From positions 1 through 56,317 of IMG/VR virus record IMGVR_UViG_3300050138_000012: a stretch of 56,317 nt of DNA; one strand, given 5' to 3'. The translations under genes were made by a program, and so were the position numbers. This document shows positions 1-44,575 of the stretch, piece after piece. This stretch comes from a virus. Lineage: Duplodnaviria > Caudoviricetes. The stretch's first letter is position 1. Each line of letters starts with the position of its first letter. The notes beneath the pieces are model-generated. The model searched no databases. It had not been told where the DNA came from and saw only the letters and a list, made by a program, of their open reading frames with translations.

Positions 1-240
1 CTCAGGTCAGCACTACTCAGGTCAGCACTACTCAGGTCAGCACTACTCAGGTTAGCACCACTAAGGTTAGCACTACTCAGGTTAGCACTACTCAGGTCAG
101 CACTACTCAGGTCAGCACTACTCAGGTCAGCACTACTCAGGTTAGCACCACTAAGGTTAGCACTACTCAGGTTAGCACTACTCAGGTTAGCACCACTCAG
201 GTCAGCACCACTCAGGTCAGCACCACGCAGGTTAGCCCTA
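1..240. repeat. 15-bp tandem repeat, ~16 copies (ctcaggtYagcacYa)
   Basis: Directly visible; encodes the pentapeptide repeats on the minus strand. Confidence 0.95.
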
Positions 241-368
241 TTTTTTATCACCCACTTAACCGCTAATCCCAGTTTAATAGAATTTGATTCACTTGGTGAA
301 CATTCAATCTCAGCTGTAAACATTACACGATCAGAGAATCTGTGTCGTACTTCAAACCTTTCAAGCAT
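1..368 (-). CDS. Pentapeptide-repeat protein, 3'-truncated at window edge (absent from ORF track)
   Basis: ATG at 368 after GGAG; reads MLERFEVRHRFSDRVMFTAEIECSPSESNSIKLGLAVKWVIKNRANLRGADLSGADLSGANLSS..., i.e. A(D/N)LSx repeats, with no stop before base 1. Confidence 0.9.
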   Translation of the reverse strand, partial: MLERFEVRHRFSDRVMFTAEIECSPSESNSIKLGLAVKWVIKNRANLRGADLSGADLSGANLSSANLSSANLSGANLSSADLSSADLSSADLSSANLSSANLSGANLSSADLSSADLSSADL

Positions 369-600
369 ACCTATATCTCCCTCTAATCTTCGTTAATACA
401 TTCAGCTCTTCATTGTTAAAAGCGATCTCATCATAATCATCAGACCAGCTATCTAAATGATTAGCATGCTTAGCAGGATATCTAACCACTGGTTTTAAGC
501 CAATCTTATAGCCTGTGAGATAGCCGAAGCCTTTGATAGGTACAGGAGTAGCAGATATTCCTTCCTCTATTCCTAGAGCCTCTAATCGATGCTCAAGCAT
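361..600 (-). CDS. Hypothetical early protein
   Basis: ORF; start moved to ATG 600 overlapping the upstream stop, same junction style as at 361-368. Confidence 0.6.
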   Translation of the reverse strand: MLEHRLEALGIEEGISATPVPIKGFGYLTGYKIGLKPVVRYPAKHANHLDSWSDDYDEIAFNNEELNVLTKIRGRYRYA

Positions 601-988
601 ATGCCCGTCGTTCAAAGGCGCTCTTAATACGCAGCCTCATCAACTTAGTCAGGTGATCTGCCCCTAATTTCATGGCAAGGGACATAGCCGTATTACCAAA
701 ACGATCCTGCATCAAAGCATACTCAACATCAAGATCAAGGATTGCTTCAATGCGCTGAACATGATTGGTTACGACAGCTTCAAGCAATTCAATCACCATC
801 ATTGGCGTTTCAGTTTCAACGATCAGATCGTATGATTTATCCCAGTTTGTTTTCTCATCTTTCTGATGTGAAGCTTTTCTAAACTCATTGAAGTTACGCT
901 TTTCAGCGTTAAACTCGCGGTCATCTTTGTTAAACAGGACGTTCAGAGTATTGATTGCAATAACAGCTTCTTTCGAATGTGCTTTCAT
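593..988 (-). CDS. Ankyrin-repeat-like protein
   Basis: GGAG RBS before ATG 988; C-terminal LLEAV..NHVQRIEAIL and QDRFGNTAMSLAMKLGADHLTKLM resemble the ankyrin D..G.T(P/A)L..A...G consensus. Confidence 0.6.
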   Translation of the reverse strand: MKAHSKEAVIAINTLNVLFNKDDREFNAEKRNFNEFRKASHQKDEKTNWDKSYDLIVETETPMMVIELLEAVVTNHVQRIEAILDLDVEYALMQDRFGNTAMSLAMKLGADHLTKLMRLRIKSAFERRAYA

Positions 989-1213
989 TATAGACTCCAT
1001 GCTAAAGTGTTTAAGAATTCATAAGTTTCTTGTTTAGGCCAAAGGCTCTGCACAAGGATGACTTCCCACGACATGACAGACGTGATAAAACCTAGTCATT
1101 TAGAAACGTATTAGGCTTCGTATGACCGTTTACAATCTTTATTTGGTGCATAAAAGGTTAGGTTTTGGACATGCAAAACTTCCGCACGTTGCAGCGGATT
1201 GGTATGATAGTAA

Positions 1214-1360
1214 TCAGCTCTGATCTTCACCGACAATTTGATTGTGGTGGTAGGCTTGCTTTGAGTCGTATTTCATTAACCAGATAAAGAGTTTCCAAGC
1301 GATAGATGAATCATAATCGTGAGAGATATCAAAGAGATAGCTTCTGATATAGTTAATCAT
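1214..1360 (-). CDS. Small hypothetical protein (48 aa)
   Basis: AAGGA upstream; MINYIRSYLFDISHDYDSSIAWKLFIWLMKY...; below ORF-track cutoff. Confidence 0.4.
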   Translation of the reverse strand: MINYIRSYLFDISHDYDSSIAWKLFIWLMKYDSKQAYHHNQIVGEDQS

Positions 1361-1619
1361 TTGGATTCTGTTCCTTGCGATGACGACTTGCCAGAACTTA
1401 TGTCCAGCTTTGTCAGATTAATTAAACGATTTGGTGGATTTAGATACCACGAATGTGGTGTTTTGATTTAGACATTTTTGATAAAGCCTCAATCCAATTA
1501 CCCATCTATGAGTCTGTAATGGCGCATGCTGAGAGCATACGTATTCACTAGGCAATCCTTAAACTGCAAAGCGTCTCATAGCACATTACTATGCTATTCC
1601 GGCACATAATATTCCCGTA

Positions 1620-1856
1620 TTATGTGTTAGTGCAAGCGTGCTTGCCTTTTATAAACTTATTAATAAAGGTTTGCTTGCTTGGTGCTGCTACTAACGCTGC
1701 AAAGTCAGCGACATCAACATTAGCATATTCGTATGTTGAATTAGTCCGTCTGTAGGTCACAATAAGATTATGTGTAACGATATCATATTCAATACGCTGT
1801 ACATTCTCACTATGAAAATCAACACCATCTTCAATGACTAGATTTAAAGCTTCCAT
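1620..1856 (-). CDS. KTSC domain protein
   Basis: SENVQRIEYD...LIVTY..STYEYANV....FAALVAAPSKQTFINKFIKG matches the KTSC pattern; GGAG RBS. Confidence 0.85.
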   Translation of the reverse strand: MEALNLVIEDGVDFHSENVQRIEYDIVTHNLIVTYRRTNSTYEYANVDVADFAALVAAPSKQTFINKFIKGKHACTNT

Positions 1857-1865
1857 AATAGACTC

Positions 1866-1946
1866 CTATATGAAAACAAACAATGCACATATGAAAACTA
1901 TTGCTAATGTGATAGCAATAACCTGATCTTCTTCTGCGTCTGACAT
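1866..1946 (-). CDS. Small single-pass membrane peptide (26 aa)
   Basis: AAAGGAA RBS; MSDAEEDQVIAITLAIVFICALFVFI; stop abuts RBS of KTSC gene. Confidence 0.55.
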   Translation of the reverse strand: MSDAEEDQVIAITLAIVFICALFVFI

Positions 1947-2104
1947 ATCGTAGTTCCTTTTCTATTCAATCGTTGCCGCCAATTAACACGATGATAGTAG
2001 TGACCTAACAGCCCTATATGGAAAACACCATATAAGTTAACATAATTATACAAAGACATTCACTACACTACGCTTCTTTATGGTAATCGTAGTGGATTAC
2101 ACAT

Positions 2105-2145
2105 AATAAAACCCTAGGTCTGGGATTATCCATAACCTAGGGCTT
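2105..2145 (-). terminator. Rho-independent terminator
   Basis: CCCTAGGT...ACCTAGGG stem followed by TTTTATT on minus strand, just after the 2167 stop. Confidence 0.7.
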
Positions 2146-2166
2146 CGTTATAGCTTAGTGCAGGGA

Positions 2167-2811
2167 CTAGGCAGCGACTGCCTTTTCCGTAACAACGGGC
2201 GTGTTCTTTTTAACTTCCGCTGTAGTCAACGGTTTAAGCACCATAACAATCTCTTGTTCTAGAGCATGGACTCGAGCCATTGTGGCGTCCAGTGTAATCT
2301 TGCCATCTTTGATTGACTTGTCAATAAGCGTAATTGACTTGTCAGCGCGGTCATACAAGCGGTCATACACGGTTGCTTCTGTCTTTTCTTCCGCCATTTC
2401 AAACTTGTAGAAAGGCAAGAGTCTAGCTTTGGCAAGTAATTCAGAGCCGATTTCCTGATCTTCCTGATAATTCTTTTTTACGGAATTCAGGTTAACGTTT
2501 TTGGAAAACTTCTTTGACCCATCGCTAAATGCGGCATTGGAAAATTCCTTTACCCATTTAACAAATGCCGCTTTACGGAAAAGATTTCCGTCTTCATTCA
2601 GAATGTCGTAAAACTCTTGAATTTTGACGGGATTGCCACAATTATGGAAATGGCGCAGGGATTCGAATGAACCTGTTACCATATCGTCGCGTAAAGTGTT
2701 TTTGTTTTCGCGGATACTTTTCAGAATCGTTGTGAGCGCCGTATCGTCAGCCTTCGTCCACCTGTAATTCGCTACAGGTGTTACAGCGGCATTGTTTTGA
2801 GCGTTTGTCAT
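2167..2811 (-). CDS. Hypothetical early protein
   Basis: Long ORF; GGAAGGA RBS favours ATG 2811 (MTNAQ); followed by terminator. Confidence 0.8.
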   Translation of the reverse strand: MTNAQNNAAVTPVANYRWTKADDTALTTILKSIRENKNTLRDDMVTGSFESLRHFHNCGNPVKIQEFYDILNEDGNLFRKAAFVKWVKEFSNAAFSDGSKKFSKNVNLNSVKKNYQEDQEIGSELLAKARLLPFYKFEMAEEKTEATVYDRLYDRADKSITLIDKSIKDGKITLDATMARVHALEQEIVMVLKPLTTAEVKKNTPVVTEKAVAA

Positions 2812-2890
2812 ATTATAGTTTCCTTCCATATCAAAGCATGTTTTAACGCATGGCTTTGTCGTAATACAGGATTATTTTACACGCCCCTGA

Positions 2891-3076
2891 TTAAGCGTGA
2901 TTCTTACGAATAAGGTTAAGCCGTTCTTGACTCGGCTTTTCTAAATGGTCATAACGCATGAACCGATTATTTGCTTTGCCATAACCGGAAAGCTTGCGTG
3001 TTTTTCTGGTTAACTCTGGTTTATGGTTGAATGTTTTCAAGGGCTTAACAATGAAATGTGCAGCCATGTTATGCAA
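2891..3076 (-). CDS. Small basic hypothetical protein
   Basis: ORF overlapping the upstream stop; AGGAG RBS. Confidence 0.55.
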   Translation of the reverse strand: MHNMAAHFIVKPLKTFNHKPELTRKTRKLSGYGKANNRFMRYDHLEKPSQERLNLIRKNHA

Positions 3077-3422
3077 TCTCCTTACTATGGAAAATTGCCA
3101 ATTGTCGTGACCAGCGTTCGGATTCGCCCGTTGCTCTTGTCGCTTGTTTTTGTTTAACAGGTTTATGGAAAGGGCGTTTATTTTCCTTAATAATACGCTT
3201 GGATTTAATCGCCTCGGTTTTCGCCATTGGCTGTAACACCCTATAGCCCTTTGCAGAGCGATTCTGCTTTACACCATTGCGGTCATAGAATTCAACATCC
3301 CATGTTGCCTTGCCAACACCTGCAACACGATTAGGGATTAATGCCATATCTTGTCGCCATTGTTTCGCGTGCTCATTAGCTTTTTGCAATCTTTTGACCG
3401 CTTGCGATAATTCGTTAAGCAT
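3069..3422 (-). CDS. Basic hypothetical early protein
   Basis: ORF in tightly packed minus-strand chain. Confidence 0.65.
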   Translation of the reverse strand: MLNELSQAVKRLQKANEHAKQWRQDMALIPNRVAGVGKATWDVEFYDRNGVKQNRSAKGYRVLQPMAKTEAIKSKRIIKENKRPFHKPVKQKQATRATGESERWSRQLAIFHSKEIA

Positions 3423-3660
3423 GCCTCGCCCCTTCCGGTAAAATGCCTTTTACAACATTATGGATGCGCCGTTTTTGGAAATTGGCATAATCTGATCTAA
3501 GCTTTAGGGATTTTTCGTAAGAAGCTTTAATTTCCGCTTGGCGCTTTTCCATATTGGATACTGCGTTTTTGGCAGCGTAATAAGCTTTCCTCGGTTTAAG
3601 CCTAGCAGACTCAGCTTTACGTGCTTGAATCCGTTCAAGCTTATCATTTATGGTAAACAT
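3415..3660 (-). CDS. Basic hypothetical protein, first gene of early arm
   Basis: GGAG RBS; chain with 8-nt overlaps. Confidence 0.7.
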   Translation of the reverse strand: MFTINDKLERIQARKAESARLKPRKAYYAAKNAVSNMEKRQAEIKASYEKSLKLRSDYANFQKRRIHNVVKGILPEGARHA

Positions 3661-3684
3661 AGTTATTCACTCCATGTTATTTGA

Positions 3685-3892
3685 CATATAGCTCGACTCC
3701 CTAGTGACTAGTAACTTCTTTACCGTGCCAACAAGCGCAATTATTATGGAAATACTTTGCCATATTTCAGACATAGTTTTTCACCGTAGTTGACCTATAT
3801 TTGAATCTCAGTTTCACCCAAGTCCAATAGGACAATTACCATAATGATTCACCCATTGGCACGCCTTGCACCGTAGGGAGTCGGGCTATATG
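3685..3892. ncRNA. Candidate structured RNA leader / fold-back element
   Basis: Nested inverted repeats: 3685-3703 with 3874-3892, 3724-3731 with 3856-3863, 3743-3753 with 3835-3845, inner hairpin 3766-3805. Confidence 0.5.
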
Positions 3893-3924
3893 CCCTAGGA
3901 AAGTCAATCACTGTCCATCTTTCA

Positions 3925-3953
3925 AGCCTACTCCGATTCGGGATAGAAAGCAA
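3925..3953 (-). promoter_or_regulatory. Putative early promoter with YGATTCG motif in the spacer
   Basis: TTGCTT-17 nt-TAGGCT on minus strand pointing into early genes. Confidence 0.45.
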
Positions 3954-4047
3954 CATAAGATATTATCCTATGATATCATGGGGATATAAAGCTTTGCTAA
4001 TCTCATAACGAATCAGGAAAGGCGAATCACTGCCCTGAATAGTATTT

Positions 4048-4473
4048 CCATAATACTGTTTTTGGCTGGCATTATAGCATAGTATCCGATTCGTTTCTAT
4101 TTCAAAGATAGGTAATGGATTGAAAGATTATTAGTTTTCCATAAAGTTTAGAATACTATTTCCATAATAGTTTTGCAAGGGATTAGTCATAATAATTTGA
4201 GTTAACATATTAATAAAAGGTTAACGGCATTTGTCATAATGTTAGTTGTCATAACTCTGGGCGTTAATAAAGGTTAACATACTACTAATGGTATTTACCA
4301 TAACACAATGTCATAAGAGTTAATGTCTTACTTTAAGTCTTATGTGAAAGTAAATTACATTGTCATAATCGTTTGTCATAAGTATTTTCCGTAATAAATA
4401 GCCCGTTGTAGGTCACGCCCATATATATTTCCCATAAGAATTCTGGTACATTTACCATAATCATTTCCCATAA
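4048..4473 (+). repeat. Array of ~14 co-oriented YCATAA motifs (TTTCCATAA / TTGTCATAA)
   Basis: Copies at 4048, 4139, 4162, 4187, 4234, 4249, 4298, 4311, 4363, 4376, (4389 variant), 4432, 4455, 4468. Confidence 0.8.
4210..4225. promoter_or_regulatory. CtrA-box-like site TTAA-N7-TTAAC
   Basis: TTAATAAAAGGTTAAC; near-copy with N6 spacer at 4264-4278; AT-rich context lowers significance. Confidence 0.4.
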
Positions 4474-4772
4474 TGCTGGAATGTTAGGGAAAATAGTCTG
4501 TTAGAATGTTATGGTTAATGTTAGTATTATGTAAATTGATTATGGCAGAAGGTGGGGGGAAAGATTTGGGGGGTGTCTTTGTTAGTATTCACACCCAATA
4601 GAAATTTATAGTATATTTACAAAGGCTTAAGTACCTGAATATATTTTTACATATATTTCCTATATAAACCCCCTATGTTGCCTGTATAATCCCTATATCT
4701 GATATAATATAGTTATGTGTAATGGGTATATTTGTGTTATAATAATATAATAGATGACAATTAGGAGATATT

Positions 4773-5261
4773 ATGGCTAATTTACCAGCCCACATCCAGA
4801 CTATATTCGATAACCTGACCGTATTCCAGAGAACCTACTGCGAATACCGTTCAAAGGGATTGTCTCAAGCTACCTCTTCTGAGAAAGCTGGTTCTAATGG
4901 CAAGGATAAGAATGCTCTTGCCTGTGTCGGGTATGCCATTGAGCAGTTGGATGGTGTAAAGGAGTACATCTCCCATCTCCAGCAGGAGAGAGCTAAGGTA
5001 TTTCCAATTGATGAGCTGGAGATTGTTGCTAAACTCAGAGATGTTTACACTGAGTGTATGCGTAATGAAGATTACAAGGAAGCTAATAAAGCTTTGGAAC
5101 TAATGGGAGCTATAATTGGTCTGTTTGGTAAGAATAAGATTATGGTTAAATCAGATACCAGCTCAGAGGCGTTCAAGGATGAGGGCTTAGAGACCAGTGC
5201 CAGTGAGAGAATGGCTAAGCTTCAGTCTATGATGAAGGATCTAAAGAAGGGTAATGACTAA
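4773..5261 (+). CDS. terS: Terminase small subunit
   Basis: AGGAG RBS; N-terminal LTVFQRTYCEY...QATSSEKAG HTH-like segment, KALELMG motif; directly upstream of terL. Confidence 0.75.
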   Translation: MANLPAHIQTIFDNLTVFQRTYCEYRSKGLSQATSSEKAGSNGKDKNALACVGYAIEQLDGVKEYISHLQQERAKVFPIDELEIVAKLRDVYTECMRNEDYKEANKALELMGAIIGLFGKNKIMVKSDTSSEAFKDEGLETSASERMAKLQSMMKDLKKGND

Positions 5262-5405
5262 GATCAATGGGTTAGCAATATCCGCTAAGTAGTCTAAGAC
5301 ATATTCTAGAACATTACTTAGACAAGTTAATTCCCTAGATCCATCCCCCAAACCCCCTTCATTATAAAGAAAGCCAATTACAAGTATACCACAAACTACA
5401 AGGAC

Positions 5406-6995
5406 ATGCAAATGGTATTCAACATAAAGGACATTGAGAGGCTGGAGAGGGAGCTCCTCGATCAGCTCATTGTCCAGTCAAGGACTTGTTTTTACACATT
5501 TGTTAAGCTGATGGCTCCGACAGTCCTCCCAGAAGACTTCGTAGACGGTCAACACATCGGTATCATCTGCTCCCAGCTACAGGATGTTGTCGAATCAGTA
5601 GAAAACAAAGACCGTCGCCCCAGACGGCTACAGATCATGCTCCCTCCTGGCTCCATGAAATCCAAGATCGCTTCCAATCTATTCCCAGCCTGGTGCCTAG
5701 GTAGAAATCCAAACTGGTGCTTCCTAGCTATTGGGTCAGATCTTGAATTCGCAATAGACAACTTTGGGAGGCCTACAAAGGACCTGATTGATTCCCCCCA
5801 GTACCGGTCCATCTTCCCTAACACAGCGCTTAAAAGGGACGTCCAGGCCTCAGGACGATGGGATACAACTAAGAAGGGTCGATTTGTAGCTAAAGGGGTA
5901 GGTCAGAACATCGCAGGTCGTAGAGCCCACATCTCCATCTGTGACGATGTTATCACTGAGCAGACCAATGATAACGGCAGAGCAGATATCAACAAATGGT
6001 ATCAGAAGGGTCTTAGAACACGCTTACTCCCAAGAGGAGCTGAGATCATCATCAACACTAGGTGGTTTGTCGAAGATCTGTCTGGTTTTATGATCAGGAA
6101 GGATGAGAAGACCTCAAGACCTTGGGATGTTATCCAGATACCAGCTATTCTGCACCAGAAGGCTTCTGACGCCCTCAGAGTTGGTCTTCCTGCATCTGAT
6201 ACCCGATTCGCCGTGGGTACGAGCTTCTGGCCTGAGTTCTGGCCTACTCAACTGCTTCTAGAGAAGAAGGAGACAATGAACCCTGCTGAATGGACCGCAC
6301 TATACCAGCAGGAGCCTATATCAGACGACAGTGGCCTTGTAAAAAGGTCAGACTTCCAAATCTGGGACAAGAAGGAGCCGCCTAAATGTCGCTATGTAAT
6401 AGTTTCAATAGACACAGCCCTCTCTCAAAAGGATGCCGCAAATTTCTCTGCGTATACGGTGTGGGGGGTATTTACCAACCTTGTTCAATCGATGGATACC
6501 CAGATAGCCCAGGATTCAATGATCCTTTTATCCGCAGGAAGAGGCAGATGGGACTTCACCGAGCTTTGTGGCCAGATGCGAGAGATAGACCTAAAATACG
6601 CCCCTGAGTACTTCATTGTGGAAGAGGCATCAGCTGGTCTACTTCTGATCCCTGAAATGCAGAAGCGGGGGATGCCGGTTCTACCTCATAAGCCAAAAGG
6701 GGATAAAACATCAAGACTGCAAGCCTGTACCCCCTATTTCCAAGCGGGTAGGGTGTTTGTACCTTCTGGTAAACAGTGGGCTGAGGATGTAGTTCTGGAA
6801 GTAATCTCATTCCAGCCCAGGTTAAGGAACCAGGTTGACGACTATACCGATACAGTTTCACAGGCTGTTATATGGATGCGAGATAACTATAAGATTGATA
6901 ATGATGGATATTCTAATCATTGGGATGAAGAAATCATGACAGCAAGGCGTAAAACCTACTGGTCCTCGATGATGGAAGGCACCCTCAGAAACTAA
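5406..6995 (+). CDS. terL: Terminase large subunit
   Basis: Walker A-like MLPPGSMKS, GRRAHISICDD Walker B, TRW coupling motif, nuclease SIDTA...DDYTD. Confidence 0.95.
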   Translation: MQMVFNIKDIERLERELLDQLIVQSRTCFYTFVKLMAPTVLPEDFVDGQHIGIICSQLQDVVESVENKDRRPRRLQIMLPPGSMKSKIASNLFPAWCLGRNPNWCFLAIGSDLEFAIDNFGRPTKDLIDSPQYRSIFPNTALKRDVQASGRWDTTKKGRFVAKGVGQNIAGRRAHISICDDVITEQTNDNGRADINKWYQKGLRTRLLPRGAEIIINTRWFVEDLSGFMIRKDEKTSRPWDVIQIPAILHQKASDALRVGLPASDTRFAVGTSFWPEFWPTQLLLEKKETMNPAEWTALYQQEPISDDSGLVKRSDFQIWDKKEPPKCRYVIVSIDTALSQKDAANFSAYTVWGVFTNLVQSMDTQIAQDSMILLSAGRGRWDFTELCGQMREIDLKYAPEYFIVEEASAGLLLIPEMQKRGMPVLPHKPKGDKTSRLQACTPYFQAGRVFVPSGKQWAEDVVLEVISFQPRLRNQVDDYTDTVSQAVIWMRDNYKIDNDGYSNHWDEEIMTARRKTYWSSMMEGTLRN

Positions 6996-7000
6996 ATCCT

Positions 7001-7037: not shown

Positions 7038-9668
7038 ATGGCAAAATCTAAGAAATCCAAAAAGATTATGAAACCTGACCCTGAGGCTGAACAAGCCCAA
7101 GGCAGTCTTGACGACGCACAGGATCAGGGCTCGTCACTAGGTGATAAAGCTCAAGAAGGAGAGCCTAACGAAGATGGCTCCGTTACGGTCTCTTTCTCAG
7201 ACGCCGCAGATGAAGAACTAGAGGGTGGTCTTGGTGAGTACGATATCAAAGACGAGCACTATGGTAATCTAGTTAAGAAGATCACTGATGACCAGCAGCT
7301 GAAAGCCCTGGGTGCCTTGGTAATTACGAATACGAGTGCAGATGAAAATTCCAGATCTGATTGGATGCGGACTGTTAAGTTCGGACTTGATCTTATTGGT
7401 GTTAAAGTTGAAGAGAAGAACACCCCATTCCAAGGAGCCTGTTCTGCTCAACACCCCCTCCTCATGGAGAGTGCGGTTAAGTTCCAATCCAAAGCATCTA
7501 ATGAACTATTACCTGCTGCTGGACCTGTTAAAGTCTCTATCCTAGGCGATTGTACGCAGGATAAAGAACAACAGGCTAATCGTGTTAAAGCTCATATGAA
7601 CTACCAGATCGTCGAAGAGATGACGGAGTTCTATACCGATTCAGAAAGGATGCTGCTTTATGTTCCCCTCGTCGGTTCGGGGTTTAAAAAGACCTATTAT
7701 AACTCTCATCTGGAACGACCCTGCTCGGAATTCGTACCGGCAGATCAGTTCATTGTACCCAATTCCGCTTCTGACCTTCAGCGGGCAGATCGTTACACTC
7801 ATATCCTCTACAAAACCGACTACGAACTCGAAGCTGACTACGCCGCAGGTCTATACACGAAGCCAGAAGATGGCCTTGGTATACCGTCTTCTCCAAAACT
7901 AACTGATGTAGCGAAGAAAGTAAATGAGCTCATCGGTATTACCATTGGCATAGGGGATAGAGATAAGGTCTACACCCTGTATGAACACCACATCATGCTT
8001 CATATCGAGGGCCTGGATGGACAAGAAGGAAAAGACAAGACGAAATATAAACTTGCTTCGCCGTATATTCTCACAGTTGATGCGGCATCAGGAAAGCTTA
8101 TTGGCCTCAGACGCAATTGGAAGAAAGAAGATAAGAAGCGCAAGAAGAAAGTTCAATTCACGCATTACTGCTTTGTTCCGTCTTTTAACTTTTATGGTTT
8201 TGGTTTTCTTCACCTCTTGGGTAATCTGCAATTGTCGCTCACTGCATCACTTAGATCATTGGTGGACGCTGGGCAATTCGCCACGCTACAAGGCGGTTTC
8301 AAGCTTAAAGGGGTGAGAATTGTTGATGATGGCTCACCCATTCATCCTGGTCAGTTTAAAGAGATCGAGAGCTCTGTGCAGGACATCAATAAGGCAATTA
8401 TGAACCTGCCGTTCAAGGAGCCTTCGAATGTATTGTTCCAAATGCTGGAATTCCTTGATCAGAAAGGTCAGCAGTTTGCAGACCAGACGGATGCAGTTGT
8501 TTCAGACTCCACAAACTACGGACCAGTTGGCACTACTATGGCTCTGCTCGAAGCATCAGCCAAGTTCTTCTCCGCTATCCACAAGAGACTTCACCAGTCC
8601 CTGAAGAATGAGCTAAAGATGATTGCTGATATCAACGCAGAAACCCTGCCTGATAATCTGGAGTATAACATCGAGAACGCTACGATGAAGATCACCAGAG
8701 AAGACTATTCTGGCTCTTGCTCTGTTGTGCCTGTCTCTGATCCGAATATCCCATCCAGTGCACATCGTATGGCTAAGGCACAAGCTTTGCTCACCATGGC
8801 CCAGCAAGCACCTCCTGGTCTTTACGACATGCGGGAGATCAATCGTCACGTCCTCATTAATATGGATTATGAAAACATTGACAAACTCATGCCATTGCCT
8901 ACTCAGACACAGCCACAAGACCCTCTTACTGACCTGCAGTCTGTCGTGGCAGGCAAGCCTATCAAAGCGTTCCCAGGACAAGATCACAAGGCACACATCG
9001 CTATTAAACAGGCTTTCATGCAAGACCCTATGTCTGGTCAGAACCCGATGATGCAGAAGGCTTCGGTTCAAATCCAAGCCAATATACAAGAACATATGAT
9101 GGCTCAGTTTATCGAGCAGATCCAAGCAACCGTGCAAGCAGGACAACAACAAGATGGCGGTCAAACGCAAGCTAACGCAGCATCAGCCCCTGCAATGGGT
9201 AATCAAAATCAAGAACAGCCCGCTGCAGCTCCCGATCCCATGGTACAAGCGGCTCAGCAAGTGGCTCAGATCAATCAACAGATCTTGAAGAACCAAGCTA
9301 CACCTCCTCCGCAACCTAAGGATCAAGCAGCTCTTATGCTGGCCCAAGCAGAGCAACAAGATACCCAGACTAAGGCCAAGGCTCAGGACTTCAATCAGGT
9401 TCACAAGACAGCTGAACTTGAACTTAAGAAGGAAGCTCTTCAGATCCAAAAGGCTCAGGTTGTTTCTCAGCATGTGCTGGCAGATAAGAAACAAAAGGGT
9501 GATATCGACAAGATCGTTACCACTAAGGGTCTTGACAGCATGATACAAGCAATGTCTCAAGGGCACCAGGCAGATACCCAGCATTCACTGCAGCATCAAA
9601 AGACCCTAGGAGCAATTGCTACTATGCCGCCTCCTCCTGTTCCAAAGCCTACTAAAGAAACACCTTGA
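7038..9668 (+). CDS. Portal protein with Gln-rich C-terminal extension
   Basis: Follows terL; HPLLMESAVKFQ, GSGFKKTYY, FYGFGFLHLLG, PVGTTMALLE, PVSDPNI motifs typical of P22-like podophage portals. Confidence 0.9.
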   Translation: MAKSKKSKKIMKPDPEAEQAQGSLDDAQDQGSSLGDKAQEGEPNEDGSVTVSFSDAADEELEGGLGEYDIKDEHYGNLVKKITDDQQLKALGALVITNTSADENSRSDWMRTVKFGLDLIGVKVEEKNTPFQGACSAQHPLLMESAVKFQSKASNELLPAAGPVKVSILGDCTQDKEQQANRVKAHMNYQIVEEMTEFYTDSERMLLYVPLVGSGFKKTYYNSHLERPCSEFVPADQFIVPNSASDLQRADRYTHILYKTDYELEADYAAGLYTKPEDGLGIPSSPKLTDVAKKVNELIGITIGIGDRDKVYTLYEHHIMLHIEGLDGQEGKDKTKYKLASPYILTVDAASGKLIGLRRNWKKEDKKRKKKVQFTHYCFVPSFNFYGFGFLHLLGNLQLSLTASLRSLVDAGQFATLQGGFKLKGVRIVDDGSPIHPGQFKEIESSVQDINKAIMNLPFKEPSNVLFQMLEFLDQKGQQFADQTDAVVSDSTNYGPVGTTMALLEASAKFFSAIHKRLHQSLKNELKMIADINAETLPDNLEYNIENATMKITREDYSGSCSVVPVSDPNIPSSAHRMAKAQALLTMAQQAPPGLYDMREINRHVLINMDYENIDKLMPLPTQTQPQDPLTDLQSVVAGKPIKAFPGQDHKAHIAIKQAFMQDPMSGQNPMMQKASVQIQANIQEHMMAQFIEQIQATVQAGQQQDGGQTQANAASAPAMGNQNQEQPAAAPDPMVQAAQQVAQINQQILKNQATPPPQPKDQAALMLAQAEQQDTQTKAKAQDFNQVHKTAELELKKEALQIQKAQVVSQHVLADKKQKGDIDKIVTTKGLDSMIQAMSQGHQADTQHSLQHQKTLGAIATMPPPPVPKPTKETP

Positions 9669-29800: not shown

Positions 29801-29867
29801 TATCGTGGATGGTCATAGATTCTTGGGTGGCGATCCTTCTGATCCTAACAGCTGGGCGGCACAATAA
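26829..29867 (+). CDS. Internal virion / DNA ejection protein
   Basis: Hydrophobic Gly/Ala N-terminus, Gln-rich, YMNPY and GAFGGSR motifs, seven [FYL]xxGG repeats, C-terminal DGHRFLGGDP...W. Confidence 0.75.
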   Translation: MAAAVGAGAAVVGVGAQLLGGSQGNQGTATQGTTTPQVPSWLLPYLQQNAATANTLASQPYQPYTGQQVNPLTAMQNQAGTMSQSLADNGAAITGMNAANAVQTNVANQGQNGLNPATIQSYMNPYTNSVIDATNLRAQQQEQLQQNQLQAQQGQTGAFGGSRASLAQGQLQSNFAQQQSQNNATMMQNNFTNAENMGMQGLGQANSAAQGMMQSTAGAQTAQLQNIGALQTAGGLQQTTGQNQDNAAYQDFLTQQAYPYQQLANSQNILNPIGSLTTGTNATGFTQQSGSPGLLQTALGSAAAGASIGNSLSGSNAFGFLNSSAPYNSSATDNSGIPSLSDAQASVADDTANVANGSISQGNLDFSQAEVSNIRDALATGGMVPHSRGYAQGGQVQQPSLSDHINHFIDTYAKHFANGGLIKSDKTDIPGVPTQYGMTQEEMPYTSQKPKYLIPAYAKGGQIPLQSGLSDANVPGIKRERQHWGKPYVPQTKNDPGYLRPDVKNALATGGMIGIPQFSNGGLTAHYGIPGFEEGGVAPDIGLIMGDADNGQSGIDAMFGDPTQAASSTNTMTTPGSIADETPEYAAWRAQQMQSSSPTLDKLSAWADQPSPLWNIGNGPAAPPNPTTGLNFNPGAGTKSGSDWSTPSGNSGGYGPAQGPATMGSVAHGDINSLANTVLNPQSTNAPGSANYAPDKDYVGKAEDAVSNLFKMFVPSGKVGDTSATAPTKDASEPTPQQHATDVAASGAAADILAAGGTEAQAKSAYIAKGGNPTTWADASASFAGDKTGTRAAAPVQRTSAIAPDAGQQTSSATGDIDNTINSGDTPQEKYEKYQNLMMNKILNGPGGPNSKVNLPLLSMGAAILGNRSNSLAGAIGAGGEAYTKTAQAQSAQNMELMQKMMMAHYYEGRNGIQQQRVDQNAPLVAAKINNLEQLPQGDPQKKQYDMAVQNGLKNGMSAQDAKAQAAAAFPDSLTTPNTSTSGQAAPAIGAIVDGHRFLGGDPSDPNSWAAQ

Positions 29868-32800
29868 TGACTTCGGGACCTTGGGATAATTACACACCAT
29901 CTAGTCTGCCTCCTGCACTTACAGACATAGGGCCAGATCAAGGTGCTACGAGTGATGGTCCTACAGTACCGCAGCTGCTTGCCAGCAATCCTTCAGCTGG
30001 CCCTTGGGATAAATACGCAGCTCCTGTAGCTGATGGTCCTTGGTCTAAGTATGCCTCTATGAACACCCCTGCTGCCAGCGATGACGGGGAAGCTTACAAA
30101 GGTCTTCGCAGAGGCTTGACTGAGACTGGTGAAGCTTTAAAGATGCTTCCTGATGTAGCTGAGGCCTCATTCAATAAGCACATTGCCCCTGTATTTGACC
30201 AAGATAAGATTAAACAAGATGCATTAGCATATCAGAAAGCTATCGATGCTTCTAATGCACAATATCCCGATGCAGTTCCTTCCTATAAAGACATACACAG
30301 TGCATCAGATCTTGCAAAATACGGTGCCAGTGCCTTAGGTGGCGCTGCTCCTGGTCTTGCGATGATGGCAATTCCTGGTGGTTTTGCAGGCAGTATGGCT
30401 AAAGAAGGTGCAGAATTGGCTGCTAAAGAAGCTGTTCAGTCTGCTGCTGTTGAGGCTATCGGTGGTCTCAGTGAACAAGCTGGTACAAAGATTGCCGACA
30501 AAGCAGCACAATCATTCATAAATAAAGCAACTGTTGCTGGCTCTGCAGCTGGTGCTGCTTCAACTGCTATCCCTCAAGACTACACATCATGGTTGAACCG
30601 TGGAGTTGATGCTCCTGATACAGCCATCTTTGCTGGTGGTGTGACGGGCGGTCTAATGGCCGTGATGCCAGGAACTGTTATGGGCAAGGTCTTAGGTGAT
30701 GACCTAGGCTCTCAGGTATTAGGCGCTAATTTAATGGAGAAGGTCGGTATCAGATCACCTCTCATCCAGAAAGTTCTTTCACATGCTGTTGTAGGTGCGG
30801 CTGAACTTGGTACTGCTGGGGCCACAGCTGAAGGATTGAATTTACTTGCTGAGCATGAGATAGGTTTAAATCCTAATCTCTACACTAAAGAGAATCTCAA
30901 TCGTGTATTCGAAGCTGGTTTTACAAACGCTATAGGCGGTGCTATTATGGGTGCTGCAGCTGCTCCATTCATCAACCATGCAGAACTGGGTACTACTCTA
31001 TCTAAGGAGGGGAATAGGCCTGCTAATGTAAAGCCTTTAGATTTGACTTCTACTGAGCATACCAAAGCATTTCAAGAAGCCCAAGATCTTAAAGAGAAGA
31101 CTGCTGTTACAGCTGAACAGAAACAAGCCGTAGCTGATGACAAGATGAATGTGGGTATTAAGAACGATGATATCAAAGCTCAAGTGGCAGCTGGTCCTTC
31201 GCATTCTGAAGACGCTCAACTTACACCTGTCTGGATGTCTAAAGAACAGGTGAAGAAATATCAGGATATGGGTCTTAGCGTAGAAGACATGCAGAAAATC
31301 AATCCTCTTGATCAGATCTTTGCTGAACATCTTATCGCCGAATCTCAAGATCCTAAGAACAAAACCTTCGATGACTATTCTAAAGCACCTGAAGGAACTG
31401 ATCCAAGACCATTAGAAAAAGTTGGTATTAAGGATCAAAATCGACTACAGGAATGGTCTGATGAGGCGCTAAACGCTAAGTTCCAACGTACCACACCTAC
31501 TCTGGATTCATTTAAATCTTGGTTCGGTGGTAGCAAGGTAGTGGATGCTCAAGGTCAACCCCAAGTCATGTACCATGGCACTAGTAAAGATGTTGACTTT
31601 AAAAGATTTAATATCGGTCAAAGAGGAGCCTGGTTTCATCCAGATCCAAAAGAAGCCAGTATGTATGCCGAAAGCAATGACAGCCAAGGACATAAATTAG
31701 ATCCGGATAAACCTGGTTGGAATTTAATTCCTACGAATACTCGCTCTAGAGTAATCCCCACGTATTTAAAAATGGAAAATCCCTATTTCCCTTCTTCTGA
31801 AGACTACAAAAAACTTTATGGCGATGGGAATGGTAATTCTTATCAGAAAAATCAAAGAGACATAGCGAATAAGGCAAAAAAGCTTGGTCATGATGGCATA
31901 GTTCTGCCTGGCGGCACTCACGTGGTATTCGATCCTAGGCAGATTAAGTCTATTTGGAATGGAGAATTTGATCCGCATGATTCTAAATTTCAGCGTTCCC
32001 TAACAGGGCACCCTAATCTCCACCAATCCTTCTTGCAAGCTCACACATTTGGTAATGCTTTCGAAGGCCTTGAGCATACTAAAGAAGGACTAGAGAAGCA
32101 TGTCGATGTAGCCAATGCTCTGAATAGAATCGGTCAAGAGCTTACTGGCTCGGCTAAGTTTAAGTTCTGGGACCATCTTCAAACACGTTTTGAAAAAGAC
32201 CCTGTGCGTGGTGCGCAATACCTGAATATGATACACGTCGCCATCAATGATAGTACCTCCTTTGCCAATGCCAAAGAAACGCTCTACCATGAAGTTTGGC
32301 ATTACTTAGAGGGCAATGGCTTTATTACTGATGCGGATAGAGCCTTGTTCGATAAGAACCGTGACCTCGCTATAGAGTACATGCGTAAAGATGGATGGTT
32401 AAAGGATCAAGACTATGATCACTTGATGAAGACCCAAGAAGGTCGTGAAGAAATTAGAGCCAATATGTATGGTAAAATGTCAAGGGAAATGAACCTTGAT
32501 AATAAGAATACATTGCCAGGAATATTCAAAGGCATGTTTGGCAAAGCTAGATCGCTAATACAGCGGATTAAGTATATGCTAAAGGGTCAAGATATTAAGG
32601 CCCTACAAGACTTTGTTCGAAACACTAGTGAAGGCGGTAAGATGGATCAAGAAGGTAAAGGAACTGTAGAGAAAGGAAGAGGTCAAGAGCCTATATCATC
32701 TGTAGAGAAGATCCATGAAAATCTAATGTATAATGCAGCTACGTTCAGAGCACAGCGCATGGAACAGTCTCAAAGAAAAGCTGAAAGTGATGAAGCTATG

Positions 32801-35800
32801 GCTAAGCACAGAGAGATCTTACAGCAATACGTAGATGGTAAAGTACCGTTTAGAGATGCAGTAAAATCCTCTGTAATCTTTGATAAGAATCGTATGATAA
32901 GGGACAATGTAGGTGATAGGGCTCTATGGGCTCAATGGCTCCAAACCCCTGCTAGGCTATCTGAAGAAAGCCCTTTCTTCTCTTTGCTTACTAATCACTT
33001 CCGTAATATTAAAAATTCTACAGCTAATCATATGTCTCGCTATAATGAATCCTTGAAAGAATGGAACAAGGCTGACCCTATGCTGAAGGCACAGGTAGGA
33101 GATCTTACAGCTAAAATGAAGATTGCAGGGCTAAAAAGCAAACTTAACCCAGATGGTCAGATGGAGTTTATGAATGAGAGTGGGAGCATTATACATCTTC
33201 TTAAAGACAAAGAGGCTTCCACCCTATACGGCCATTTACAAAAGGCAATGGCAGATGTTCATGAAGACCGACTGAACGGTTATAAAACCAAGGCGCGTGA
33301 AGTATTCAAAGACATCCTTCCAAAAGATTACCATACAGCTGAAGTAGACTCAGCTATACTGGCTTTGCACGGCACAGATAAAATCTCTTCAGAACGTATG
33401 GATATGCTGAAAGAACTCTCGGAGAACCTGCATAACTCTGATGTTATGAAGATGCACGACTATATTCCATTCTCTCGCTTCGGTCATTTTGGTATTACCG
33501 TCAGAGATCGTAACCAGCCAGTGTTAGATAAGAATGGTAAGAAGACAGGCGACTACAAGCAGGTTGCGCTGCACACGGTTGAATCCCAGCACTTTAATGT
33601 TCCTGGCAATCGTGGCAACTATAACATGCACCAACTGCAAAGAGAAGTCGCTAAGATCAAGGCCTTATACAGCGACACTAAGCGCTATGATGTTATTGGC
33701 GGTCAAGGCAAGATTACCAACTTTGATGATCATACTAAGATCCACCCATTCACCATTGATAAAAATGCTGTCGGCAATCAATTAGACCCACGTTATCTGA
33801 ACACTGAACTCCTGACCTCAATGATCAACTCGTCCTCTATGGACCCAGAAATGCATAAAGAGATTAAAGAGAAGCTGATGGGTGTGGTGGATGCTGAAGC
33901 CAATCGTAGAAGCTTTGGTAAGTTGTTTGGTAAGAGTGAGAAAACAGCGGGATACTCACAAGACTGGAACAGAGTGATACACACTTACGCTTCCGGATCT
34001 GCTCATATCTTGTCTAATCTGGAACATGCTCAAGATCGCGCTGCTTTAGACGCAGCTGTTAAGACCTTAGCCGATCATGGACTGCGTAAGCAGAGTGAAG
34101 CCTATATGTCTTATGTAGGAAAGCCTCAGGACGACTTACAAACCCTAAGAGCCTTCAATTACCTGTGGGCGATGGGTGGTAATTTCTCCTCAATGCTGGT
34201 TCAAATGTCAACATTGCCAACTATGTCATTAGGTCAGATGTGTAAGTACTCGCCTCATGTCCTACAAAATATGACCCTGATCGGTAAGCAATTTGTACAT
34301 GCTGCTGTCTATTACGCAAAAGGTGCAGATCACGCAGCTTTAGAGCACATGGTTAAGTCTGGTCGCTGGACTGTTGATCAAGCCAATACCTTCAGACGTG
34401 CAGAGATGGACTCTCATATCCAATCCCCCTCCCAATTAGAAGCTTTGGGTCAAAGACCTTATGAGAGGGAATCTGATGCAGGTAAGTTCAAGGGCAAGGT
34501 TAAATCCATTACCAATATGCTTTCCCTGCCTGTGTTTGTAGGTGAGCAAATAACCAGAGCCGCCACCTTTATGGCCACTCATGAGATGTTACAGGATAAG
34601 GCGGTAATGGATCGGTTTGAGAAAGTTCATAAGAACGATATGAATTGGCAAACCCAGAAATCAACCAATAACAAGCTATCTCCTGCCGAGAATGCGGGCA
34701 GGTATGTTCTTGATACGGCACACGGAGTATATGGCAAAGAGGGCAGGGTTGCAACGTATCGGGGTGTTGGTGGGGCATTATTCTTTCCTTTTATGACTTT
34801 CCCCCATAGAGCAATTGAGAGAATGATTACAGAGACCCATAAACAGGGCTCAGAGGGCCGTATAGCGCTTGGAGTTACTTTAGGTGCCTTAGCCCTCACC
34901 TCTGGTCTGATGGGCCTTCCTGGGGCTTCTGCAGCCACTAAATTAGCAGATGAATATGAAAAGCGCCACAAAGGTATCGAAACTAATACTGAGCAGATGA
35001 TTTATGAGAAGATGGCCCATATGACAGGGGATAGCCCTACAGCTGCTAAGATGCTTACTTACGGGGTAGGCAGAGCCTTCTTAGGGACAACCATTGGGGC
35101 TAGGTTTGGTCTTCCTGAATTGCCAATGCAGAATGCTTTGTTTAACTTCTTAGGAGTGGGTACGTCTACTCCCTCTAGCCAATACGGCGTAGAAGGTTCG
35201 ATTATTAGTTCATTTGGAAATGCTTATAATGCCTATCAACAAGGCTTGGGTCCAGCTACGGTTGCTGGGGCTATGATGCCTAATGGCATTGCAAATCTAT
35301 TTAAAGCTTATGATTTATCTCAGAATGGACTTAGAGCTGGTGGTAAAGATCCCCAGACTATTATACCACCTAAAGATGTGAGTGTAGGAACCATACTCAG
35401 TAAGATGGGTGGAATAACTTCAGATCAAATAGCTTCAATGAAAACAATCTTCTATGCTGCTAAGCTCGATAAGAGCGCAGGGAAGTATGCTGGTGCCTTT
35501 GATAGGTTTAAGGAGCAGGGCATCTCTCTGGCTACGCAAAGGGATAAGGCTGCTGCTAGAGGCGATGGTGCGGGGGTATCAGACTACACTAATCAAATTA
35601 ACAGTCTTTTGGCTGATGCTCGGCAGTTCGTTAAAGAGAACCCAGGGGCTAAGTATCCTACGACACTAATTCGAGAGATCAATATGGAAGCAAGGCAGAG
35701 AGCCACTGGTGCCTTCCCACAAGCTAAGAACTACCAACAGAGACAGCAAGCAACGGAAACAAGCAAACTTTACGGATACCCAGGAGTGTATGATGGTGCA

Positions 35801-35809
35801 GTTAAATAG
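29867..35809 (+). CDS. Large polyvalent internal virion protein (ART-like + HExxH metallopeptidase + PLxRFG)
   Basis: FKSWFGGSKVVD..G.P.VMYHGT...VVFDPRQIKS; TLYHEVWHY...EE.RA; DYIPFSRFG; three N-terminal GPWxxY. Confidence 0.8.
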   Translation: MTSGPWDNYTPSSLPPALTDIGPDQGATSDGPTVPQLLASNPSAGPWDKYAAPVADGPWSKYASMNTPAASDDGEAYKGLRRGLTETGEALKMLPDVAEASFNKHIAPVFDQDKIKQDALAYQKAIDASNAQYPDAVPSYKDIHSASDLAKYGASALGGAAPGLAMMAIPGGFAGSMAKEGAELAAKEAVQSAAVEAIGGLSEQAGTKIADKAAQSFINKATVAGSAAGAASTAIPQDYTSWLNRGVDAPDTAIFAGGVTGGLMAVMPGTVMGKVLGDDLGSQVLGANLMEKVGIRSPLIQKVLSHAVVGAAELGTAGATAEGLNLLAEHEIGLNPNLYTKENLNRVFEAGFTNAIGGAIMGAAAAPFINHAELGTTLSKEGNRPANVKPLDLTSTEHTKAFQEAQDLKEKTAVTAEQKQAVADDKMNVGIKNDDIKAQVAAGPSHSEDAQLTPVWMSKEQVKKYQDMGLSVEDMQKINPLDQIFAEHLIAESQDPKNKTFDDYSKAPEGTDPRPLEKVGIKDQNRLQEWSDEALNAKFQRTTPTLDSFKSWFGGSKVVDAQGQPQVMYHGTSKDVDFKRFNIGQRGAWFHPDPKEASMYAESNDSQGHKLDPDKPGWNLIPTNTRSRVIPTYLKMENPYFPSSEDYKKLYGDGNGNSYQKNQRDIANKAKKLGHDGIVLPGGTHVVFDPRQIKSIWNGEFDPHDSKFQRSLTGHPNLHQSFLQAHTFGNAFEGLEHTKEGLEKHVDVANALNRIGQELTGSAKFKFWDHLQTRFEKDPVRGAQYLNMIHVAINDSTSFANAKETLYHEVWHYLEGNGFITDADRALFDKNRDLAIEYMRKDGWLKDQDYDHLMKTQEGREEIRANMYGKMSREMNLDNKNTLPGIFKGMFGKARSLIQRIKYMLKGQDIKALQDFVRNTSEGGKMDQEGKGTVEKGRGQEPISSVEKIHENLMYNAATFRAQRMEQSQRKAESDEAMAKHREILQQYVDGKVPFRDAVKSSVIFDKNRMIRDNVGDRALWAQWLQTPARLSEESPFFSLLTNHFRNIKNSTANHMSRYNESLKEWNKADPMLKAQVGDLTAKMKIAGLKSKLNPDGQMEFMNESGSIIHLLKDKEASTLYGHLQKAMADVHEDRLNGYKTKAREVFKDILPKDYHTAEVDSAILALHGTDKISSERMDMLKELSENLHNSDVMKMHDYIPFSRFGHFGITVRDRNQPVLDKNGKKTGDYKQVALHTVESQHFNVPGNRGNYNMHQLQREVAKIKALYSDTKRYDVIGGQGKITNFDDHTKIHPFTIDKNAVGNQLDPRYLNTELLTSMINSSSMDPEMHKEIKEKLMGVVDAEANRRSFGKLFGKSEKTAGYSQDWNRVIHTYASGSAHILSNLEHAQDRAALDAAVKTLADHGLRKQSEAYMSYVGKPQDDLQTLRAFNYLWAMGGNFSSMLVQMSTLPTMSLGQMCKYSPHVLQNMTLIGKQFVHAAVYYAKGADHAALEHMVKSGRWTVDQANTFRRAEMDSHIQSPSQLEALGQRPYERESDAGKFKGKVKSITNMLSLPVFVGEQITRAATFMATHEMLQDKAVMDRFEKVHKNDMNWQTQKSTNNKLSPAENAGRYVLDTAHGVYGKEGRVATYRGVGGALFFPFMTFPHRAIERMITETHKQGSEGRIALGVTLGALALTSGLMGLPGASAATKLADEYEKRHKGIETNTEQMIYEKMAHMTGDSPTAAKMLTYGVGRAFLGTTIGARFGLPELPMQNALFNFLGVGTSTPSSQYGVEGSIISSFGNAYNAYQQGLGPATVAGAMMPNGIANLFKAYDLSQNGLRAGGKDPQTIIPPKDVSVGTILSKMGGITSDQIASMKTIFYAAKLDKSAGKYAGAFDRFKEQGISLATQRDKAAARGDGAGVSDYTNQINSLLADARQFVKENPGAKYPTTLIREINMEARQRATGAFPQAKNYQQRQQATETSKLYGYPGVYDGAVK

Positions 35810-44348: not shown

Positions 44349-44575
44349 ACATAGATTTGACGCCTCATCCATCTCCAAAGATCGTCCGGTTGGAGTGTGG
44401 TTCCGTAAATTCTAAAATGGATCGCAGGGTCTCGCGTATAACTAGCACTGTAAATCTTTTTTCGGAAGTGTCGAAATAGCGGCATGTTAGGAAATGGTCG
44501 CCTATAGTGGTATGCCTTGACACACTCATTAAAGAAGTGGTATTCAATACTTTCCTTAGGCAGAGTCACTTTCAT
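44345..44575 (-). CDS. Hypothetical protein
   Basis: AGGAG RBS. Confidence 0.55.
   Translation of the reverse strand: MKVTLPKESIEYHFFNECVKAYHYRRPFPNMPLFRHFRKKIYSASYTRDPAIHFRIYGTTLQPDDLWRWMRRQIYV

Follow-up and report, generated by a model that had tools for sequence, protein, structure and literature searches.

In the classical coliphages, when the very first phage genes are expressed, and how strongly, is governed by structured leaders and RNase III sites. The RNase III sites of the T7 type are single hairpins of ~50-60 nt, in which an upper and a lower stem are arranged around an internal loop, and it is this internal loop that lies at the scissile position. The helix that joins the leader and the trailer of rRNA is an RNase III site as well. 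New RNA motifs are not rare in phage metagenomes, and, to our knowledge, almost nothing is known of such control in the abundant, uncultivated podoviruses of aquatic environments. Early or leader RNAs of lambda, T7, and T3 are among the targets of RNase III, and the lambda N leader is processed (PMC5371410). In the case of rRNA, the long-range leader-trailer helix encloses structured RNA, and the leader also bears small box hairpins (PMC10250234). The Correia repeat enclosed elements can bind RNase III and be either cleaved or protected by it (PMC2649163).

The locus described here belongs to a podovirus-like phage represented by a linear, complete-looking (95%) IMG/VR virus record, the nearest named relatives of which are the HTVC023P-type pelagiphages, with a TerL identity of only 33-35%. 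By the window, we mean the whole stretch of DNA that was analyzed, 56,317 bases. On the plus strand are terS (4773-5261), terL (5406-6995), the gene for the portal protein, and a set of structural genes that extends to 35809; the minus-strand genes, which include those for a T7-type primase-helicase, DNA polymerase A, and PhoH, among others, occupy 35848-56317 and 1-3660. The end of the structural block (29867-35809, plus strand) encodes a 1980-aa protein that adjoins a DNA-ejection-type protein and contains an ART-PolyVal domain, the ADP-ribosyltransferase of polyvalent proteins (E 4e-18); this is probably a virion-borne, injected multi-domain protein. The fold-back is located within the 1.1-kb stretch between the first leftward gene (ATG at 3660) and terS.

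The fold-back and its putative transcription unit

The original prediction placed a nested fold-back of ~210 nt in this stretch. Its outer stem was recovered as claimed, namely, two arms of 19 nt (3685-3703 and 3874-3892) that are 95% complementary and 170 nt apart, and in the minus sense, one G-U and one G-C pair are added to this stem, which then has 21 positions. The nesting of the interior was confirmed as well, but the helix lengths differ from those originally listed: in the minus-sense minimum-energy fold, the 19-bp closing helix (P1) is followed by a helix of 5 bp and an imperfect one of 23 bp, after which come two hairpins and, on the 3' side, a further small hairpin. The parts of the element are the following.

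3683..3894, minus strand: whole fold-back, the putative structured leader element, 212 nt in the minus sense
3874..3894, minus strand: 5' strand of the closing helix P1, 21 positions with 19 Watson-Crick pairs, 1 G-U pair, and 1 C-A mismatch
3683..3703, minus strand: 3' strand of P1, from the inverted-repeat list and a pair-by-pair check
3858..3872, minus strand: HP1, with the conserved block CAAGGCG and a possible 5-bp stem with the pentaloop AAGGC
3835..3849, minus strand: 5' strand of the inner helix P2, one copy of the motif of the neighboring array (UUAUGG in the RNA sense)
3739..3753, minus strand: 3' strand of P2, an inverted copy of the array motif (CCAUAA)

Over a 226-nt stretch, the minus sense folds to -84.5 kcal/mol vs -53.5 +/- 4.3 for dinucleotide shuffles (z -7.2), and the plus sense to -69.8 kcal/mol (z -6.05), with none of 200 shuffles as good in either case. 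P1 is the sole inverted repeat with a score of at least 14 and a spacer of 60-260 nt in all 56,317 bases. A sliding-window fold scan (210 nt, step 35) under-rates the element because no window contained both arms of P1. A second strong fold (z -5.07) was noticed at 54860-55110, also in the minus sense, inside a gene for a NinI-like phosphatase; it also contains a CCGATTCGG site.

No known RNA family was recognized when the element was first noticed, and this assessment stands: a search of 3300-5000 against Rfam 15 (E <= 10) returned five chance-level hits, none of which overlaps 3685-3892, and in the same kind of search with five relatives taken whole (E <= 1), only tRNA and two weak hits elsewhere were found. 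One of the relatives, L150, has a tRNA gene at 2875-2950 (minus strand). There is no ORF of at least 40 aa in 3685-4672, and a coding region was rejected for the fold-back. Also rejected were a riboswitch, with the conserved core absent and P1 far too long, and an intrinsic terminator, with the U run absent after P1. Among the structured RNAs with dedicated functions, we discarded retron msr-msd RNA (no reverse transcriptase domain in 35 proteins compared with PHROGs or in 18 and 28 compared with Pfam, partly the same ORFs), 6S RNA (no Rfam hit; the fold is branched, not a rod with a central bubble), and phi29 pRNA (no Rfam hit; the phage has terS and terL, whereas the phi29-type packaging motor works without a small terminase).

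The element had been described as standing at the head of the early operon. It does lie directly before the first ribosome-binding site of the leftward gene set, but it heads a short unit rather than the whole early arm: because a terminator follows the 220-aa gene, the module comprises the leader, small genes, the 220-aa gene, and this terminator.

3658..3673, minus strand: ribosome-binding site GGAG (3670-3673) and start codon ATG (3658-3660) of the first gene, with 22 nt between P1 and the start codon
3415..3660, minus strand: first gene, 81 aa, very basic, no family
3069..3422, minus strand: second gene, 117 aa, no family
2167..2829, minus strand: 220-aa gene, phrog_1448, function unknown, the one gene found after the fold-back in all relatives
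2098..2146, minus strand: intrinsic terminator, a 13-bp G+C-rich stem followed by a U run, which ends the unit

In the window, the genes downstream of the fold-back encode proteins of 81, 117, 61, and 220 aa. Homologs of the 81- and 117-aa genes are found in some relatives and the 220-aa family in all; in L150 and L152, the 220-aa gene comes directly after the fold-back, without the 81-aa gene. A strong intrinsic terminator follows the 220-aa family in each of seven loci (the window, L143, L132, L153, L142, L152, and L150), and several of these terminators have a common CCCUAG...CUAGGG stem. The 81-aa protein has no match in Pfam or PHROGs. For the 220-aa protein, no match was found in Pfam, in a PDB profile search, by tblastn against named phages, or, at E <= 0.001, in a Foldseek comparison of its AlphaFold model (pLDDT 71) with the PDB, and in the Atlas, it falls into viral hypothetical clusters only; a search with a 4-sequence alignment of the family recovered only the L132 contig again, whereas a 7-sequence alignment was too diverged to serve as a query. 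The early genes further include those for a pentapeptide-repeat protein (3-368, minus strand), cut by the end of the record, and for a KTSC-domain protein (1620-1856, minus strand).

The promoter originally proposed at 3925-3953 is weak and absent from the list produced by a sigma-70 scan, although its -10-like hexamer falls within a block of 45 nt upstream of P1 that is well conserved between the window and L143; this block may mark where the leader begins or may act as a weak promoter. The upstream region contains the following features.

3895..3940, minus strand: block upstream of P1, conserved in the alignment of the window and L143, including the -10-like hexamer
3990-3962, minus strand: second sigma-70-like site, 9 of 12 positions
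4071..4099, minus strand: best upstream sigma-70-like promoter, TAGAAA, 17-nt spacer, and TATAAT with TG, 10 of 12 positions

The -10 of the best site (4099-4071) ends 178 nt before P1, and promoter-like sites in L005, L132, and L152 likewise have a -10 whose end is 172-214 nt from P1. The site of the window and its L005 counterpart have the motif CGAATCG in common, located in the spacer. Other genes on the minus strand have perfect TTGACA / TATAAT promoters (12 of 12 positions; 47033-47005, 44348-44320, 41483-41454, and 39591-39563). From these consensus sigma-70 promoters in the minus-strand block, it follows that the phage probably relies on the host polymerase, and the ORFs that were scanned did not include a gene for an RNA polymerase of its own. 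A sigma-70 site matching at 11 of 12 positions was also observed at 54820-54792, within the minus-strand gene block.

Place and shape in diverged relatives

TerL-anchored searches of viral and metagenome contigs yielded 27 distinct related contigs, with three metagenome duplicates of viral rows counted once. Eight loci, the window included, span the region, and their TerL proteins are 66-100% identical to that of the window. The structure is kept, and covaries, in seven of the eight, where a fold-back of 138-220 nt with a closing helix of 17-26 positions lies directly before the first leftward start codon, at a distance of 4-43 nt from the end of P1.

Window, 3683-3894: 212 nt
L143, 1847-2017: 171 nt
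L132, 5249-5468: 220 nt
L153, 5094-5263: 170 nt
L005, 305-482: 178 nt
L150, 5661-5798: 138 nt
L152: helix at 5284-5393, within 5265-5440

All seven fold-backs beat their own shuffles in the minus sense (z -5.2 to -8.8). The eighth locus, L142, retains the conserved sequence block considered below and a structured region of 300 nt (z -2.7), without the long closing helix. Apart from the pair formed by the window and L143, the fold-backs share no alignable primary sequence, so that what is kept is place, size, and shape. Across the seven loci, the P1 helices comprise 132 Watson-Crick pairs and 16 G-U pairs; of their mismatches, 5 are A-C and 4 are of other kinds. In five of them, a single mismatch is found at position 10-14 from the base of the helix, and in four (the window, L143, L132, and L153), it is a C in the 5' strand opposite an A, in the window at position 11 (3884 opposite 3693). 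The P1 helices of L132 and L153 are unrelated in sequence to that of the window, yet have the same C-A mismatch.

A covariance model built from L143 alone (R1) detected the window element at 50.1 bits (E 1.2e-10), and in a search of 235 kb, it had no match besides this element and its own source in L143. No equivalent fold-back was recognizable in the more distant L151; L154 and L155 were inspected at the level of the inverted-repeat list. In L154, the TerL match is split into two pieces (6357-6998 and 8001-8915) that are ~1 kb apart, which suggests an insertion in terL, such as an intron, an intein, or a homing endonuclease; the window has a gene for a SegE-type GIY-YIG homing endonuclease at 44556-44996 (minus strand). 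In a blastn search with 3400-4900, no named phage matched, and scans of viral contigs with a two-motif pattern and a 14-nt block produced, among the matches listed, only chance hits after filtering. The 18-nt P1 pattern matched viral contigs twice, both times in unrelated coding sequence, and these candidates were rejected. No description of the element was found in a small literature search, including a term search of PMC9599517, a scope that falls short of proof that the element is unpublished.

The covariation counts come from two to seven sequences in alignments fitted to the structure; whole-fold-back alignments produced with MAFFT and RNAalifold misalign the 3' arms and were left out of the counts. 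In the model-fitted alignment of the window and L143, eight pairs are changed on both sides, two each in P1, HP1, P2, and an inner hairpin, and all seven one-sided changes keep a G-U pair in the minus sense. The fraction of paired cells is 95.6% vs 27-42% with the partners slid, and the slid controls show zero or one double change. All the counts from this alignment are tilted toward the structure, to which it was fitted.

The strand can be addressed as well. G-U pairs account for 59 of the 464 pairs in the minus-sense folds vs 22 of the 400 in the plus-sense folds, P1 has 16 G-U pairs vs 5 A-C mismatches, and z is better in the minus sense in six of the seven loci, the exception being the window itself. 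However, the plus strand also folds far beyond chance (z -3.2 to -9.4), and part of the asymmetry is base composition because the minus-sense shuffles themselves fold ~10 kcal/mol better than the plus-sense ones. Taken together with the constant position before the ribosome-binding site, the asymmetry in G-U pairs and z provides moderate evidence that the element acts as an RNA with the same sense as the early genes. The same strand may also have a role as single-stranded DNA, although the more specific suggestion that the fold-back acts as an ssDNA hairpin during DNA entry found no support.

Within the fold-back, only one block of sequence is conserved, YCARGRCG, which is located just inside P1 in the window, L143, L132, L153, and L005, and elsewhere in the element in L152 and L142; it was not found in the L150 fold-back. 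In the window, this block can form HP1, and hairpins of this exact kind occur only twice in 112 kb, that is, in both strands of the window. The covariation of HP1 over seven aligned sequences is 0.444 vs 0.213 +/- 0.077 after shuffling, a value reached in only 2 of 500 shuffles, and slid controls score 0.06-0.19. A hairpin of this kind can be formed in five of the seven aligned loci: it is free or nearly so in L153, L143, and L005 but disfavored in the other two, with a forcing cost of 9.0 kcal/mol in the window and 9.7 kcal/mol in L132, because there its 3' half pairs with a distal segment. In the minimum-energy fold of the window, this segment is 3711-3735, and the pairing is part of a long helix. 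Given that both HP1 and the alternative long-range pairing show compensatory differences between loci, a switch between the hairpin and the long-range helix is possible. The next helix is P2, which in the window, L143, L132, and L153 pairs UUAUG in its 5' strand with CAUAA in its 3' strand and is thus an inverted pair of the motif of the neighboring array.

Readings at the RNA and DNA levels

The reading that we tentatively prefer, while giving it somewhat less than an even chance, is that the fold-back is a new structured 5' leader RNA of a short immediate-early unit, the long closing helix of which serves as an RNase III-type processing or stability site. Host RNA polymerase would start at the candidate sigma-70-like sites 69-178 nt upstream of the element, and the nascent leader would fold into a multi-branched domain closed by the 17-26-bp P1. 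With a length of about two helical turns and one mismatch about one turn from its base, P1 is long enough for a double-strand-specific nuclease such as RNase III, in keeping with the RNase III substrate suggested at the outset, and the host enzyme would then be expected to recognize and cut it. Such a cut would separate the upstream leader from the coding part. The 5' end left behind would be a defined one, 4-43 nt from the first start codon, and would set the stability or translation of the early mRNA; the cut and would also release the inner domain of 130-190 nt.

A hint in the opposite direction comes from P2, which, being an inverted pair of the array motif, suggests a role of the DNA itself. 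The array has the following extent.

3954..4771, plus strand: array of ~20 copies of WTTKNCATAAY (TTNCATAA repeats), between the fold-back and terS (4773-5261)

The array fills the whole space between the fold-back and terS and occurs nowhere else in the 56 kb; its orientation flips at ~4490, and the closest spacing is 13 bp. In the relatives, it was located in L005 (720-2400), L131 (1-1050), L153 (5550-6850), L143 (2290-2720), and L132 (5660-6000), with 53 copies in L005, and across the 12 loci where it is kept next to terS, there are 229 plus vs 76 minus CATAA cores. L151, with a TerL identity of 46%, has upstream of terS, at 100-950, an array of the CCAAGG / CCTAGG type in tandem repeats of ~60-70 nt; with a different motif at the same place, the array seems to be kept as a feature while the motif changes. 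As to its function, we can only guess at an origin, a genome end, or a region recognized by the terminase. The array is the larger unexplained feature of the region and may be more unusual than the fold-back.

It is conceivable that the fold-back is a cruciform-prone or protein-bound site in the same system as the array, be it packaging by the small terminase, an origin, a genome end, or an early operator, with the inverted motif copies as binding sites of the array protein. We regard this as unlikely but as the best placed of the alternatives. Beyond P2 and the retention of the array next to terS, it draws on the fact that, in L132, L153, and L150, the arms of P1 also contain copies of this motif, on the significant folding of both strands, and on the clustering of GANTC sites at the fold-back region. 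GANTC is the CcrM methylation site of alphaproteobacteria and is under-represented in the window (2.4 per kb vs 3.8 per kb expected), yet 10 sites lie in the 480 bp of 3608-4088 vs 2.4 per kb window-wide; an extended form, CGATTCG, is found 145-223 nt upstream of P1 in five loci and is contained in the spacer of the best promoter. As the target of CcrM, the clustered sites may hint at the host and at methylation-dependent early promoters. Furthermore, 16 of the 27 distinct related contigs (L129-L138, L139, L144-L146, L148, and L151) terminate in the array or at its edge, no more than 2.3 kb upstream of terL, with five of these contigs longer than 10 kb and the enrichment being mild for short contigs; such ends could be physical genome ends, population variability, or an assembly problem. 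Yet, what a DNA site would have to explain is that the P1 sequences are unrelated between loci while their pairing is kept, whereas protein-binding sites normally keep sequence rather than complementarity. Only the minus sense has the 16 G-U pairs of P1 (59 overall); in the other arm of a cruciform, each of them would become an A-C mismatch. Moreover, the element always abuts the first leftward ribosome-binding site, and no helical phasing is seen in the array.

The remaining explanations accept an RNA and differ in what it does. The closing helix might merely release a stable RNA of 130-190 nt that would act in trans, titrating a defense sensor or an RNA-binding factor of the host as a decoy or sponge, with the ARGRC loop as the contact site. 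Structured RNA enclosed by a long processing stem is the topology of the rRNA leader-trailer helix (PMC10250234), the loop sequence is conserved while the stems vary, and the element comes first in the earliest unit, all of which fits an excised RNA; nevertheless, with an interior that is poorly conserved in length (138-220 nt) and branching, and with HP1 missing in L150 and of doubtful formation in L152 and L142, we consider this function rather improbable.

Still less probable, in our estimate, is processive antitermination, whether by the leader alone, in the manner of HK022 put, or by HP1 together with the basic product of the first gene, in the manner of lambda N and boxB, which would allow read-through of the terminator after the 220-aa gene. 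The predicted 5-bp stem and pentaloop of HP1 in the leader, the very basic 81-aa first product of the operon, and the strong terminator that closes the unit in seven of seven loci, with further minus-strand genes beyond, speak for such a mechanism. Against it, the 81-aa protein lacks a Pfam or PHROGs match, the fold-back is kept in L150 and L152 without the 81-aa gene, no boxA-like element was recognized, shuffled sequence has as many terminator-like sites as the minus strand of 1-3700, and the later genes have consensus promoters of their own. We also know of no nut or put site that features a closing helix of 17-26 bp.

A selfish or neutral palindromic insert without phage function, similar to the MITE-like Correia repeat enclosed elements in its ~20-bp terminal inverted repeats around a 130-170-bp core in a leader, is highly implausible for an element that is present in a single copy in 56 kb, occupies the same position in seven of eight diverged relatives with compensatory change, and shows no flanking target duplication in the sequence, with no transposase among the ORFs scanned.

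The structured leader with a processing helix therefore stays in first place among our readings, and it lends itself to a bolder version. The fold-back could represent a new family of phage regulatory RNAs, in which either an RNase III-released RNA of 130-190 nt with a protein-read ARGRC loop or a switch of the loop segment between hairpin and helix decides on read-through of the terminator after the 220-aa gene or on whether the early mRNA is translated. The reader of the loop could be the small basic protein encoded by the first gene. We put this forward as a speculation that is rather more likely to fail than to hold, by a wide measure. If true, a lineage of uncultivated, lytic podoviruses, probably of alphaproteobacteria, would have an early switch that is riboregulatory or resembles that of lambda N. 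In any case, the locus defines a candidate RNA family, recognizable by the C-A mismatch in its closing helix, its conserved loop block, and the array motif in its inner helix. The family belongs to a conserved module with three parts, namely, the leader, the 220-aa gene of unknown function, and the terminator. It thus offers a concrete target for metatranscriptome mining, covariance-model searches, and reporter and cleavage assays.

Comparison with known systems

The closest parallel is apparently provided by the RNase III sites of T7 and T3, located before gene 0.3, and of the lambda N leader. As in these phages, a double-stranded RNA feature, here known from sequence, is predicted in the leader of the first early gene, just upstream of the first ribosome-binding site, in a phage that would be transcribed by the host polymerase. 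The likeness to the T7-type sites in shape is limited to the mid-helix mismatch, and there is no sequence or Rfam similarity: at 138-220 nt, the element has 3-4 times their size, and it is multi-branched, its structured domain with the conserved loop being enclosed by a nearly perfect helix of 17-26 bp. The rRNA processing helices share the enclosing architecture but differ in that the RNA enclosed here is only 130-190 nt long and variable, would belong to an mRNA leader, and carries its small hairpin inside the helix and not before it.

With lambda nut/N and HK022 put, the locus has in common a possible stem-loop with a 5-nt loop in the putative early leader, a small basic protein encoded by the first gene, and a downstream terminator. 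In contrast to those systems, Pfam and PHROGs revealed no homology for the small protein, no boxA was found, the loop sequence of HP1 differs from that of boxB, two relatives lack the small protein, and the long closing helix has no counterpart. The Correia elements, which are MITEs of Neisseria, resemble the fold-back in their inverted repeats around a core of ~100-150 bp and in their occurrence in 5' leaders, but they are multi-copy, mobile, and conserved in sequence, whereas the fold-back is single-copy, syntenic, and diverged in sequence. The fold-back thus matches no curated RNA family of Rfam 15 and departs in shape from the T7-type sites, but it would work most like the RNase III sites in phage leaders and the processing stems of rRNA.
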